Source: Alkalispirochaeta sp.
GTDB lineage: Bacteria; Spirochaetota; Spirochaetia; DSM-27196; Alkalispirochaetaceae
Direction: 5' to 3'
Assembly (NCBI GenBank): GCA_965601925.1
Contig: OZ271854.1
Coordinates: forward strand, 4,256,001-4,320,000
DNA length: 64,000 nt
The position numbers were made by a program, and so were the translations under genes. Numbering within the stretch: the first letter of the stretch is position 1; each line of letters opens with the position of its first letter. Below, one piece after another: positions 5,637-11,575 of the stretch. Under the pieces are notes generated by a model. That model saw nothing but the letters and a program-made list of their open reading frames with translations. It ran no database searches and was not told the origin of the DNA.

Positions 5637-6092
5637 TTACCGCACGATGCGTCCCAGACCGAATCCGCCTAATGCACCGAGGGTCGTACCGATGCCGGTC
5701 GTGATACGACTCCATCGCAGCCGGGACTCAAGGCTCGCCACCTCCGCTTCGTGTTGCATGCTCAAGTCCCTCAACGATCCCGATAGCTGCTCGGATAAGA
5801 TCTCCGATTGTGCGAGCTCCTCCGATAGCCTCTTCGAGGTCTCTTCCTGCTCGCTCAACAGCTGCCTCAATAGCCTGATTTCGTTCTCGTAACTCAGAAG
5901 CGTCTGCAGTTGCTCGTTCGAGAGCATCTCGGCTTCGAGCAAGATCCTCTTCAGCTCGGCGAGCGATGATCTCGTACTGTCCGGCCGCTCTTGCGCGTGG
6001 GCCCCAGACGGCCCACCCAATACCAACACCGAGACCGCAAGCCAGTACCAACGCCGCGACCATCCACCTCGTCTGCATCCTCGCCTCCTCAT
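5637..6092 (-). CDS. Exported coiled-coil protein with C-terminal Gly-rich hydrophobic tail (outer gene of nested pair; spanin-like)
   Basis: ATG at 6092 overlaps amidase TGA (ATGA), AGGAG 7 nt upstream; Arg-rich n-region, WYWLAVSVLVLGG, AHA|QE site, Leu/Glu heptads, ITTGIGTTLGALGGFGLG tail. Confidence 0.65.
   Translation of the reverse strand: MRRRGCRRGGWSRRWYWLAVSVLVLGGPSGAHAQERPDSTRSSLAELKRILLEAEMLSNEQLQTLLSYENEIRLLRQLLSEQEETSKRLSEELAQSEILSEQLSGSLRDLSMQHEAEVASLESRLRWSRITTGIGTTLGALGGFGLGRIVR
5728..6078 (-). CDS. N-terminally anchored coiled-coil protein nested in 5637..6092 in another frame (spanin-like)
   Basis: GAGGAGG RBS 5 nt before ATG; hydrophobic MVAALVLACGLGVGIGWAVW, then Ala/Glu/Arg heptad helix. 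Confidence 0.65.
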   Translation of the reverse strand: MQTRWMVAALVLACGLGVGIGWAVWGPRARAAGQYEIIARRAEEDLARSRDALERATADASELRERNQAIEAAVERAGRDLEEAIGGARTIGDLIRAAIGIVEGLEHATRSGGGEP

Positions 6093-6625
6093 CTGTACGC
6101 TCCTATCTCGCGGACGAACTCGGTCCAGTCCGCACCGTTGTCGACCATCCATAGGGGACACCGTTTGCCGGTGCAATCGTAGTGGCGCAGAATGTGCGAC
6201 TCCGTCGTGATGCCGTGTCGGTGTATGATATCGGCGGTGAGCTCCACCGCCGCGTTCCACGTGGCACGCAAAAAAGCGCCCGACGCGTCGGGGTGACACA
6301 ACTCGATGCCGATCGTGCGCCAATTGGGCTTACCGCCGAGGCGCGTCTCGACCTCGCGTCGCGTTCTGCTCGACGGTCCGGCGTGCCACGCGACCTCATC
6401 CTCGGGAATCATTTGGATGATCTCTCCCTCCAAACCGATTACGTAGTGCGCCGACGCGTAGCGCCCCGGTTCGGTTCTCGGGAGTGCGTCGAAGTAGTCC
6501 CGGATCCGCTGCGCCGTGGCTCCCGGCCATTGCACGTAGTGAATCACCACGCCGGTGACGCGTGGAAGAGGCTGTCCCGGGCGGGTATGCGTATCGACGG
6601 CAATGTGCTTCCTTGCAAGGGTCAA
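6089..6625 (-). CDS. N-acetylmuramoyl-L-alanine amidase, Amidase_2/PGRP family (endolysin-like)
   Basis: VVIHY, SAHYVIG, E..AWHAG, N..TIGIELC, RHYDCTGKRCP Zn-amidase motifs; start uncertain (TTG 6625 preferred; ATG 6718 possible). Confidence 0.88.
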   Translation of the reverse strand: MTLARKHIAVDTHTRPGQPLPRVTGVVIHYVQWPGATAQRIRDYFDALPRTEPGRYASAHYVIGLEGEIIQMIPEDEVAWHAGPSSRTRREVETRLGGKPNWRTIGIELCHPDASGAFLRATWNAAVELTADIIHRHGITTESHILRHYDCTGKRCPLWMVDNGADWTEFVREIGAYR

Positions 6626-6824
6626 ATGTGTGCTCGCTTTCGTTCGTTTAACAATCTTACATATTATAACCCGAACGTCACTTTGGGAAAAACCAACCTC
6701 ACCGATAGAATTTAACATTTCTTCTTCAAGATTATCCTTACCGACTTGACCCGGGCGGCGCATCCCGTCGATACCGGAGCGCTGTCAATCGAGTCGCCCC
6801 TGTGATATGATCCCGCGGCATAGT

Positions 6825-8852
6825 ATGAACGAAACGCGCAATATCGGAATAATGGCCCACATCGATGCGGGCAAGACAACGACGACGGAACGCATCCTCT
6901 ACTACACCGGCAAGTCCCACCGTATCGGCGAGGTCGACGACGGCTCCGCGACCATGGATTGGATGGTTCAGGAGCAAAATCGAGGAATCACCATAACCTC
7001 GGCCGCGACGACGACATTCTGGCACGATCACAAAATCAACATCATCGATACGCCGGGCCACGTCGATTTTACCGCTGAGGTCGAGCGGAGTTTGCGAGTT
7101 CTCGACGGTGCAATTGCGATCTTCTGCGCCGTCGGGGGTGTCGAGCCGCAGTCGGAGACGGTGTGGCGACAGGCCGATGCGTATAACGTACCCCGAATCG
7201 CCTTCGTCAATAAGATGGATCGCATAGGTGCCGACTTTTTCGGCGTGTTGGAAGAGATACGGAGCAAGCTCCACGCCGAGCCGGTCGCGCTTTCGATTCC
7301 GATCGGTCGCGAAAATGAGTTCGAGGGGATCGTCGATCTGCTTGCCGTGCAGGAGATTCACTGGAGCGAGTCGGACAACGGAACGACCTATGAAACGCGG
7401 CCCGTCCGCGCCGAGTTATCGGAGCAAACGTTTCAATGGCGAGAGAAGCTCCTAGACGCGGTCTCCTCCTACTCCGATGAGATCACCGAGCTGGTTTTGG
7501 ACGACAAAGACGTGCCGCCCGAGGCGATCAAACGTGTACTCCGAGAACAAACGCTTGCCGGGACCGTTCTTCCGGTGACCGTCGGTGCGAGTTTGCGTAA
7601 TATCGGCGTTCAACCGTTGCTCGATATGGTGGTGGACTACCTACCGGCGCCCGAGGAGCTACCGGCCGTTCGGGGCATGCATCCCAAAAAAGGCGACCCG
7701 GTGGACGTCGCACGGACGGTAGAGGGCCAGGCGGTCGGTATGGTTTTTAAGATTCAGGCCGACCGCGACGCCGGATCGTACTCGTTTGTGCGGATGTATC
7801 AGGGGACGCTCAAATCGAGCGGCGCCATATTCAACCACAACATGGGTAAGCGCGAGCGCGTCAACCGTATATTGCGGATGCACGCCAACCGTACCGAACA
7901 GATCGACAGAATAGAGGCGGGAGATATCGCCGTCGTCGTCGGGCTCAAATTGGCACAGACCGGCGATACGATCGGGAGCGAAGGCTTACCGGTGATCCTC
8001 GAGCGAATGCACTTTCCCGAGCCGGTGATCTCGGTGGCGATCGAGCCGCAAACCTTGAGCGAGCGCGACCGGCTCCAGGAGGTATTGGCGATCCTCACCC
8101 GGGAGGATCCGACGTTTCTCTGGAAAGAGGATGAAGACACGGGCGAACTGATTATTTCCGGCATGGGAGAGCTTCACCTCGACGTACTCGTCACCCGCAT
8201 CATCGACGACTACAACGTGCGCGCGAAAGTAGGTAACCCGCAGGTCACCTACCGCGAGACGATCACTCAAACGGTGGAGCATCGCGAGGTGTTCAACAAA
8301 ATCATCGGTGGCAAGGAAAACCACGCGGAGATTACCGTGCGTGTATATCCGCGGCAGCGCGGAGAAGGAAACACGTTCACGAGTATCGTTCCGGCAGATC
8401 GTCTGCCGGCGCCCTTTGCCGAAGCGTGCAAACGCGGCATCGAGGCTTCGTTCAACTCCGGAATCCGGCTGGGATACCCGAGCATCGATATCGGCGTGGA
8501 ACTTATCGACGCCTTGTTCGACGAGGTGACGGCGTCGGAGTTCGCCTTCGAGGCCGCCGCATCGTTGGGGTTCGACGCCGCGTGTTCAGCGGCCGGCGCG
8601 ATACTTCTGGAGCCGGTCATGAACGTGACCATCTTCACGCCGAAAGAGTTCATGGGAGAGGTGATAAGCGGTATCACGACGCGCGGCGGTTTGGTACACG
8701 CGGTCGAGAGTCGTCCGAGCGTCGAGCAAATCTCGGCCGAGGCGCCGCTGCGTAAGATGTTCGGGTACAGCACGGCTCTGCGGAGCACCACGCAGGGTCG
8801 CGGAAACTACGCGATGGAGTTTTCGCACTTCGCGCCGAGCGACAAACAGTAG
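6825..8852 (+). CDS. fusA: Elongation factor G paralogue (spirochaete EF-G2 / ribosome-recycling type)
   Basis: [45 protein letters not shown], domain V; not in an str operon. Confidence 0.93.
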
Positions 8853-9186: not shown

Positions 9187-9499
9187 CCGGCCCTGTGGGA
9201 TTTCCGCCCTCCGTCCTCGCGCTCGTTCCGCAGTGCCACGGTCTCACCGGCAATAGCTGCCCCCCTCCCCCCACAATCCACCAAGCGCCGTCGAGCGCGA
9301 GAGATACTGCTGCCGGGCGGCGGCCGCGGGACGACGCGATTTCAGACGTCCCCGTCTGCTGAGCGCCGGCACGTGGTCGCCGCCCCGCACTCCGGGTACA
9401 CGCACGCGCCGTCGAGAATGCGCGCCCCGAGCTTTTGCTTGACAACCGCTTTGAGCCAAACGAGAATGGGTGCTTATATATCACAGAGAAGGAGTGTTC

Positions 9500-11575
9500 A
9501 TGGCTTTCAGCACGGAACAAATTCGAAACATCGCGGTCGCGGGACACGGCGCAACCGGAAAGACCTCCTTCGTCGAACAGCTCTTGGTTGCCGGTAAGGC
9601 AATCTCGGCGCCGGCGACGATAGAATCGGGGAAAACGGTGAGCGACTACACCCCGGAGGAGATCGAGAATGGAATCTCGATCCACACGTCGCTCTCCAAC
9701 GCCGCGTGGGCCGACCATAAGATAAATATCCTTGACACACCGGGTTCGGCGGACTTCGTTGGTGAAGTCGTAACCGCCTTTCGAGCGGCGGAATCGGCGG
9801 TCATGATGGTCGGCGCGCGTGCAGGCGTACAGATCGAGACCATCAAGTTGTGGCGACGCCTCAACAACCGCAATATGCCGCGCATGGTATTCATTAACAA
9901 AATGGACGAGGAGCGCGCCGACTACGATCGGGTTTTGGAGGACCTCCGTGAAAAGTTCGACATCACACTCGTGCCGATCACCGTCCCCATCGGAACGGCG
10001 TCGGATTTCTCCGGCGTAGTCGATCTCATCGGTAATACCGCGTGGATCGCCTCCGGCGACGGCGCCGAGAAACGCGGCGATATTCCGGCGGAAATGGCCG
10101 ATGTGGTGGAGCAGTATCGCGCCCAGCTCGTGGAAGCCGCCGCCGAAGGCGACGACGAGCTCACGATGAAGTACCTCGAGGAGGAGGTGCTCACCGAGGA
10201 GGAGATCCACCGAGGCATAACGGAAGGGCTACGGGACAACAAGATCGTGCCGGTCTTCTGCGGCGCGGCGCTCGGCGGAGTCGGGCTGAACGTCTTCCTC
10301 GACTTTTTGACATGGGCGGCACCATCTCCGGCGGGCGTGCGGGAGATCGTCGTTGCGAAGGACGGAACGGAGTCGGAGCATATCATCAACGCCGACGGCC
10401 CGTTTGCGGCCTTGAGCTTCAAGACGACCCTGGACCAGTTCAGTGGTAAGCTTTCGTTCGTCAAGATCATGAACGGTATCCTGAAGCCCGACACGGAGTT
10501 CGCACTCGATAGGGACGGCAAGAAGATCAAAGGCGGCAAGATCTATACCGCCTTGGGGAAAAAGCTCACCGAAGTTAACGAACTGGACGCCGGAGATCTC
10601 GGTGTCGTCGCGAAAATCGCCGACGCGCACACCAACGATACGCTCCACGCGCCCGATACCTACATGCACTTTCGCCCCTTGGCGCTCCCGCAGCCGGTGT
10701 ACAGTCTTGCGGTCTCCGCGGGTAGCAAAAAGGACGAGGACAAGCTCAACGAGCAATTGACGCGTATCCCGGAGGAGGACAAGACGTTTACGGTCACGTT
10801 CAACCCCGAGACCCACGAGACGGTCATCGCCGGCATGGGTGAGCTACACATCAACACGATCCTCAACAAGATCAAGGCCAACCAGAAGATCGAAATCGCA
10901 ACGCGTCCTCCCAAGGTCGCCTACCGCGAGACGATCACCAAGTCGGCGGAAACGAGCTATCGCCACAAGAAGCAGACCGGCGGCCACGGTCAATTCGCGG
11001 AGGTACACATTCGCGTGCGCGCCCTGGAGCGCGGCGACAAATACGCCTTTGCAAATGAGATAAAGGGTGGCGCGGTCTCAAGGGGCTATATCCCGGGGAT
11101 CGAAAAGGGCCTCCACGAGGCGATGGAGCACGGCGTTTTGGCGGGTTATCCGGTGCGCGACGTCGGGGTCGTGCTTTTCGACGGCAAGGAGCATACCGTC
11201 GATTCATCGGAGATGGCGTTCAAGATCGCCGCCCGCGGCGCTCTCCAGCAGGCGATGGAACAGTGCGGGCCGGTGCTGTTGGAACCGGTCATGAAACTGT
11301 CCGTTTTCGTAGAAGAGCAGTATCTGGGTGACGTGCTCTCCGATCTCAGCTCGAAGCGCGGACGCGTTCTCGGGCAAGATCAGCTCGGCGGCGGCATCAT
11401 TGAGATCGATGCGCTCGTCCCGCAGGCCGAACTCTTACGCTACGCGATCGACCTCAAGTCGATGACCGCCGGCACCGGAAGCTTCGAGATGGTATTCGAC
11501 CATTACGACCCGGTACAGGGGAAGATCGCCGAAGACATTATTCACAACTCGGAGTACGTCAAGCAGGAAGCGTAG
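9500..11575 (+). CDS. Elongation factor G-like protein (EF-G II / divergent EF-G)
   Basis: GHGATGKT, NGISI instead of RGITI, DTPGSADF, NKMD, KKQTGGHGQFA, DSSEMAF; GAAGGAG RBS before ATG 9500. Confidence 0.92.
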   Translation: MAFSTEQIRNIAVAGHGATGKTSFVEQLLVAGKAISAPATIESGKTVSDYTPEEIENGISIHTSLSNAAWADHKINILDTPGSADFVGEVVTAFRAAESAVMMVGARAGVQIETIKLWRRLNNRNMPRMVFINKMDEERADYDRVLEDLREKFDITLVPITVPIGTASDFSGVVDLIGNTAWIASGDGAEKRGDIPAEMADVVEQYRAQLVEAAAEGDDELTMKYLEEEVLTEEEIHRGITEGLRDNKIVPVFCGAALGGVGLNVFLDFLTWAAPSPAGVREIVVAKDGTESEHIINADGPFAALSFKTTLDQFSGKLSFVKIMNGILKPDTEFALDRDGKKIKGGKIYTALGKKLTEVNELDAGDLGVVAKIADAHTNDTLHAPDTYMHFRPLALPQPVYSLAVSAGSKKDEDKLNEQLTRIPEEDKTFTVTFNPETHETVIAGMGELHINTILNKIKANQKIEIATRPPKVAYRETITKSAETSYRHKKQTGGHGQFAEVHIRVRALERGDKYAFANEIKGGAVSRGYIPGIEKGLHEAMEHGVLAGYPVRDVGVVLFDGKEHTVDSSEMAFKIAARGALQQAMEQCGPVLLEPVMKLSVFVEEQYLGDVLSDLSSKRGRVLGQDQLGGGIIEIDALVPQAELLRYAIDLKSMTAGTGSFEMVFDHYDPVQGKIAEDIIHNSEYVKQEA

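Follow-up and report, generated by a model that had tools for sequence, protein, structure and literature searches.

Within the window, the 64,000-nucleotide stretch of Alkalispirochaeta DNA analyzed here, three overlapping genes lie on the minus strand. The first encodes an Amidase_2 endolysin (6089..6763, 224 aa as listed; PF01510, E 7.9e-27; PHROG endolysin, E 5.5e-35), for which alignment with a prophage paralogue indicates that the TTG at 6625 is the probable true start. Its TGA stop overlaps the ATG of an outer ORF of 151 aa (5637..6092), inside which a second, inner ORF of 116 aa (5728..6078) is entirely nested. A prior sequence-only reading of the window had described this nesting on one strand and the overlap with the amidase stop, and both are confirmed, with the outer ORF running from 6092 to 5637 and the inner from 6078 to 5728; because the inner start lies 14 nt past the outer start, the inner ORF is in the +2 frame. 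Plus-strand translations of the same region are full of stops. Each ORF is preceded by its own Shine-Dalgarno sequence at the spacing previously noted, namely AGGAG 7 nt before the outer ATG, within the 3' end of the amidase gene (6100..6104, minus), and GAGGAGG 5 nt before the inner ATG (6084..6090, minus), the latter coinciding with outer codons 1-3. The outer product comprises a signal peptide predicted from the pattern in alignments (residues 1-33; 5994..6092, minus), a long helix, a basic patch and a C-terminal Gly-rich hydrophobic membrane helix that lies beyond the inner stop (residues 130-147; 5652..5705, minus), and the inner product consists of an N-terminal hydrophobic anchor (residues 6-25; 6004..6063, minus), in which Cys14 is not conserved in alignments, a heptad coiled coil and a polar tail. 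Searches of Pfam and NCBIfam returned nothing above the cut-off for either product, and the inner product produced weak matches to Rz-like PHROGs (best E 8.8e-5).

An AT-richer leader (6632..6806; 47% GC vs 58-63% in genes) is common to the cassette and a divergent EF-G-like gene, and contains a perfect minus-strand TATAAT at 6668-6663; a -35 match is absent from the leader and a full promoter was not called. The cassette includes an endolysin and no holin-like gene, and its flanks consist of host genes (a Bmp-type binding protein, an EF-G-like gene and TetR regulators), with no match to a virion, lysis or integration PHROG for the 7 flank proteins scanned. The window copy is an orphan cassette located among host genes outside any prophage, a point not raised in the sequence-only reading; it would be a three-gene lysis cassette that was either left behind or inserted there, as a host capture or as a recent remnant. 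The neighboring EF-G-like genes are two in tandem (6807-8852 and 9470-11575). The cassette was not found next to the EF-G-like gene in 20 relatives (1.5-kb flanks), and no convincing repeats flank the cassette in the window. A second amidase-plus-pair in the same genome (C1:3729552-3730650) is located at the end of an HK97-type prophage that carries terminase, portal, major head and tape measure genes. The window amidase is 81% identical to the prophage copy, and DNA identity between the two loci is 82% over window positions 6605-6000 and is then lost, so the window cassette is a mosaic rather than a simple copy. Metagenome proteins 83-91% identical to both window products exist as well. Separately, a short contractile-tail-like cluster (G000:C1:153000-165000; L012 8049-19932, minus) contains a third Amidase_2 gene among baseplate-like genes, which encodes a 333-aa protein with an extra C-terminal domain; neither head genes nor a nested pair were seen in this cluster, host genes lie upstream, and it is possibly a tailocin-like element.

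When one protein of the window pair was held fixed and synonymous codons were redrawn (5000 draws under a GC-weighted codon model), the other frame was open in 0.04% and 0.12% of the draws, in agreement with the initial judgment that a chance origin is unlikely. At each of 22 homologous loci, no more than 1.5% of synonymous redraws left the second frame open, under a per-locus null weighted by GC content rather than by true codon usage and with the caveat that these loci are kin and not independent. Of the 246 outer-like ORFs in the 5.05-Mb genome, an architecture filter set to pass 27/27 known pairs assigned a nested partner to two, the window locus and its paralogue, and the same filter in the +1 frame assigned one to none of the 246. 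Across 5 disjoint pairs, the raw change rate was 0.147 at sites where both proteins alter (152/1031), 0.295 for outer-only changes (140/475) and 0.325 for nested-only changes (146/449). Differences by outer codon position were 124/166/166 in the pair and 36/20/96 in three single-frame neighbors (p 2.5e-9 for the contrast), and indels between homologues preserve both frames. Judged from these comparisons, both frames are under purifying selection and both proteins are maintained. Conceivably, only one frame at each locus is a gene and the other is open by chance, as might be suggested by the presence of one frame per locus in databases, where checked, and by protein-level detection for an outer product only; given an open-frame probability of no more than 0.015 at each of the 22 loci, selection on both frames, homologue indels that keep both, and an annotated frame that varies between species, we consider this highly improbable. 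The one-frame database entries also bear out the expectation that standard annotation would miss the pair.

The same dual-frame architecture recurs at 41 loci, spread over 11 families of the class Spirochaetia, with the nested ORF in the +2 frame in 41/41, so that the conservation of both frames, which the sequence-only reading had proposed to check among spirochaetes, holds widely, and in phage lysis cassettes. The first set consisted of 22 loci, 8 near the genus of the window and 14 in one treponemal family, in which the inner start lies between -34 and +17 nt from the outer start and the nested stop 4-127 nt ahead of the outer stop; five further loci from a later search brought the total to 27. 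In a subsequent blind set, an outer-only profile was searched against 401 genomes of the class and 27 new loci were read: 16 contained a +2 pair (2 being repeats of earlier loci), 8 contained no short outer-like ORF, 2 contained only spurious ones and 1 (L157) was a variant, so every genuine short outer ORF had a nested partner. This last pair, from L157:1515 onward, has an outer product that stops without a C-terminal helix; it is either a broken copy or a variant and was not counted. Loci within long open frames (L037, L059-L063 and L081-L086) were likewise left out of the counts, and L020-L022 and L024, along with 5 of 7 metagenome pattern matches, were rejected as unrelated coils or Gly/Trp repeats. 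The pair was not found in the Borreliaceae-sized genomes searched, in the lysis regions of Leptospira phages LE1 and LE3, or at the two Borrelia-type DUF261 loci read. A tblastn search of two outer proteins against INPHARED phages gave no match; in IMG/VR, neither the inner protein or its alignment, nor a DNA pattern, nor an outer protein from a treponeme gave a match, and an amidase scan there returned 3 loci, all without the pair, one of them ending inside the amidase. Matches in the ESM Atlas were to unnamed clusters only. Between the two big subfamilies, profile matches are like-to-like (outer-outer 87%, inner-inner 93%), and cross matches of outer with inner profiles amount to 21% and 3%; since the outer-outer match spans 25 columns only, common ancestry of the subfamilies is likely from these alignments, not proven.

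In alignments, the outer proteins display a basic N-terminus, a hydrophobic core and mostly an Ala-x-Ala-type site that is often followed by Gln, a pattern that fits the signal-peptidase-I-like AHA site proposed for the window protein, with the cut predicted after Ala-His-Ala. AlphaFold2 models the window outer product as a single continuous helix over residues 38-149 (mean pLDDT 78, pTM 0.36). A C-terminal membrane helix is present in 22/22 outer proteins, each time after 2-5 Lys/Arg residues and with a tail of 0-8 residues, and many treponemal outer tails end in Lys/Arg; among 130 outer relatives of 120-215 aa, 104 have the helix and 94 of these 104 have the basic patch. The hydrophobic tail first noticed in the window protein is present, and is the weakest among the 22 homologues (KD 1.04; others 1.65-2.46). 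The nested products share an N-terminal hydrophobic segment, a heptad coil and a polar tail; of the coils initially perceived in both frames, that of the inner frame is significant in a simple 3.5-residue periodicity test (P<0.0005) and that of the outer, modeled as one continuous helix all the same, is not (P=0.11). In many nested products, a strongly basic N-terminus precedes an uncleaved helix, in the style of type II inner-membrane proteins. Six of 9 nested inner members match an Rz-like PHROG (best E 3.7e-5) and two treponemal inner proteins scanned gave no Rz-like family match; the Rz-like matches may reflect helix-plus-coil composition.

Lipidation signals are scarce in either product. 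The window inner product had been credited with either a transmembrane segment or a loose lipobox (LVLA-C), and of these the hydrophobic segment is borne out; LVLA-C passes a loose test based on the spirochaete lipobox rule given in PMC6529012, candidates occur at 2/8 loci of the subfamily and the other 6/8 members are without a lipobox, and because the Cys is not conserved, the motif is probably unused. The same loose rule is passed by 7/27 nested products, 2/27 outer products and 17/130 outer relatives. A clear lipoprotein is encoded in the nested frame at only 3/41 loci (L078, L080 and L154), and the nested products of the remaining 38/41 lack a lipobox followed by polar sequence. The subfamily represented by these three loci has 13 database members, one of them labelled Lipoprotein, and is only weakly matched to the rest (E 1.6e-4 and 7e-3 in a 10-sequence search). 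No periplasmic Cys is conserved in the pair. An outer-frame lipobox (Gly-Gly-Cys in some members) was rejected, being not conserved and a by-product of nested-frame codons.

Most copies of the pair belong to prophage lysis cassettes, in which the adjoining wall hydrolase comes from one of several unrelated families (Amidase_2, CHAP, M23 and C39-like, with DUF261 in the same slot), and small two-helix holin-like genes, recognized by eye and without a family match, flank most copies. In Mu-like prophages, the pair is located between hydrolase/holin-like genes and the gene for the terminase small subunit, the slot in which the spanins of Mu itself reside. In 7 of 8 treponemal regions (L036 aside), the pair directly precedes a small membrane gene and terminase-like genes, and in the eighth it follows tail genes; transposase, terminase and portal genes were confirmed by PHROG in the treponemal regions scanned. 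A fixed operon of VanY and the pair was rejected, as 0/29 other VanY loci have the pair within 1.5 kb. Several neighboring genes merit mention in their own right. A DUF261-like gene (L065:7469-7939; E 3.3e-5, below the cut-off) occupies the endolysin slot in this and similar Mu-like treponemal prophages, relatives of which carry a C39-like peptidase at that position; DUF261 may, from its placement, be an endolysin family, which, if true, bears on the plasmid prophages of Borrelia. Reverse-transcriptase-like ORFs were seen by eye just upstream of the amidase cassette at L033:1578-3189, where they are accompanied by a four-helix accessory-type ORF, and at L034:232-1245, which suggests that the prophages concerned carry diversity-generating retroelements. 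In the lysis region, the endolysin adjoins a class 3 lipase gene at L118:8497-9117 (Pfam match) and a gene similar to it by eye at L034:2876-3478.

Phage-free copies occur in three lineages besides that of the window, among them TP0222 of Treponema pallidum. Locus L036 (G200) encodes TP_0222, which matches the family profile (E 8.9e-7 and 9.9e-10), and its +2 frame, with a GTG 2 nt after the ATG, encodes a 123-aa product of the same anatomy as the nested proteins; the neighbors are host genes, TP0222 lying behind a VanY peptidase. The supplements of PMC11077495 report TP0222 in 3/3 in vitro samples (7 peptides, 80.4% coverage) and cite its detection in two earlier studies, and PMC10013896 lists it as hypothetical. 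The 1261-protein search database of PMC11077495 includes TP0222 and lacks two motifs of the nested frame, and two start forms of that frame have no entry in a 15-billion collection. The E46D polymorphism of TP0222 listed in PMC10013896 (outer codon 46 of L036) changes Ile to Leu in the nested frame, a conservative replacement. At L054 and L051, the nested frame is recorded in databases and the outer frame is not. In genus g8, the pair has been retained at a single syntenic site in three genomes, where selection again acts on both frames, and the 16 kb read for one of these genomes contain no hydrolase or phage gene. G825 also carries a copy, located between a symporter-domain gene and cheR. 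Phage-free copies with both frames under selection point to repeated host capture of a lysis module, and predict that a gene has been overlooked in T. pallidum, whose genome is small and well studied.

Taken together, the sequences exhibit two conserved proteins that share one stretch of DNA within lysis cassettes, their ribosome-binding sites being identical or adjacent. The pair shares with spanins its context, a phage lysis cassette, and its geometry, nested in the +2 (-1) frame; it lacks, in most copies, the lipoprotein by which spanins are defined, and thus belongs to neither defined spanin class. The reading that we consider probable from these data is that the pair is a dual-coding, two-component module for outer-membrane disruption (a spanin analogue) of spirochaete phages, mostly without a lipoprotein. 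Both products would be exported by Sec; the inner product would be anchored at its N-terminus by an uncleaved helix, or by a lipid in one treponemal subfamily, and the outer product would shed its signal peptide and hang by its C-terminal helix. Parallel helices could then form a rod of ~90 residues with an anchor at each end, one end per membrane, and upon removal of the wall by the endolysin, the rods would regroup, the anchors meet and the membranes fuse. As to which product occupies which membrane, we slightly favor the nested product in the inner membrane, in the manner of Rz, and the outer tail in the outer membrane: a swap of helix for lipid is easy if the anchor keeps its membrane, the nested product weakly resembles Rz, and the outer product would be released by signal cleavage, which is conserved.

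The opposite placement, a variant of the same spanin-analogue reading, fits the lipoprotein subfamily and the u-spanin precedent almost as well. It would make the outer product a type I inner-membrane protein and the nested product an outer-membrane subunit that bears a lipid in some lineages and is anchored by its hydrophobic N-terminus in the rest. The clear lipoproteins of L078, L080, L154 and the 13 database proteins speak for it, as do the Lys/Arg endings of many treponemal outer tails and the occurrence in Leptospira phages LE1 and LE3 of one gene each with a lipobox plus a C-terminal helix; moreover, the outer-membrane subunit of known embedded spanins is the product of the nested gene, and a C-terminal helix anchors u-spanins in the inner membrane (PMC6139136). 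Against it stand the lack of a lipobox and following polar sequence in most nested products, few of which pass even the loose rule, the type II-like basic N-terminus and uncleaved helix of many of them, and the weak match of the lipoprotein subfamily to other members. Spirochaete lipoproteins can, furthermore, remain at the inner membrane. On balance, we hold this placement to be possible and slightly less likely than the first.

We know of no route to the outer membrane for a C-terminal, or an uncleaved N-terminal, helix; by default, both products would remain in the inner membrane, and a pair confined to that membrane would be no spanin. The corresponding alternative is an antiparallel periplasmic rod with both ends in the inner membrane, which could regulate lysis (as a holin/antiholin or as a partner of the endolysin), block superinfection or serve as a scaffold in the envelope. 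An uncleaved N-terminal helix combined with a C-terminal stop-transfer helix would take up this topology by default, and a non-lytic role is compatible with the constitutive detection of TP0222 and with the selection-kept pair of the three syntenic genomes without a hydrolase; because copies persist with no hydrolase or phage gene nearby, lysis alone is not a sufficient explanation. Nevertheless, the cassettes read by eye contain no other spanin candidate, the pair persists as one hydrolase gives way to another, unrelated one, which speaks against a dedicated enzyme partner, and nested, out-of-frame geometry beside a holin and an endolysin is a spanin hallmark (PMC6139136), so that we judge the rod confined to the inner membrane unlikely. 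Returning to the spanin analogue, a spanin without an endolysin would tie the membranes together, which may explain retention by the host. In an extended form of this reading, which is possible but speculative, the spirochaete pair would be a lipid-free third spanin class that fuses membranes via an alpha-helical end in the outer membrane, independently domesticated in several lineages as a standing inner-to-outer tether, with the 123-aa product of T. pallidum pairing with TP0222 in the envelope. The pair would imply either a new outer-membrane route for alpha-helical anchors or a new inner-membrane lysis function.

We found no description of the spirochaete nested pair in the literature outside subscription papers, and the available text of PMC10367356, PMC13474147 and PMC3444417 adds nothing on it; PMC8705779 predicts spanins in Leptospira prophages by lipobox. 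As described in PMC6139136, a two-component spanin consists of a type II inner-membrane protein and an outer-membrane lipoprotein, a u-spanin is a lipoprotein with a C-terminal helix, embedded spanins in the -1 (+2) frame number 116 systems, and 91/677 phages of the main survey are without a spanin. Like Rz/Rz1 of phage lambda, the spirochaete genes are nested out of frame beside a holin and an endolysin, one of the two is commonly unannotated, and membrane anchors are combined with periplasmic helices, here predicted ones. Unlike Rz/Rz1, the larger spirochaete gene encodes a predicted cleavable signal and a C-terminal helix rather than a type II N-terminal anchor, the nested gene begins close to the outer start (-34 to +17 nt) and not at 0.4-0.5 of the length of the larger gene, and its product, a long coiled coil, mostly has no lipobox, with no conserved periplasmic Cys in the pair; i-spanin anatomy (type II, periplasmic coiled coil) is predicted for the nested product and not for its host gene. 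The outer product resembles the u-spanin gp11 of phage T1 in its N-terminal export signal and C-terminal membrane helix, and differs from it in having a signal site of the Ala-x-Ala type, with a loose lipobox at 2/27 loci, in being predicted all-helical rather than beta-rich, and in the nested partner present at every intact locus seen. The lipobox-plus-tail genes of Leptospira phages LE1 (L145:29265-29663, LE1-0053) and LE3 (L146:33472-33840, ATN94943) likewise unite an export signal and a C-terminal helix in one chain; these genes have no annotated function, and their lipoprotein-like signal and C-terminal Gly-rich helix correspond to u-spanin topology. TP0222 of T. pallidum belongs to the same family by profile and has the same nested +2 frame, and differs from most copies in its location among host genes and in the absence of its nested frame from the databases checked. 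By analogy, with no homology claimed, SNARE-type tail-anchored fusogens also combine a coiled coil, a basic and often Trp-bearing juxtamembrane patch, a C-terminal helix and a short tail, whereas the spirochaete pair is predicted to be periplasmic and has an export signal. Known spanins have been defined and searched for by their lipoprotein; the pair is a candidate for a solution without lipid that extends over an entire bacterial class, and its architecture provides a simple sequence filter for finding such lysis modules.
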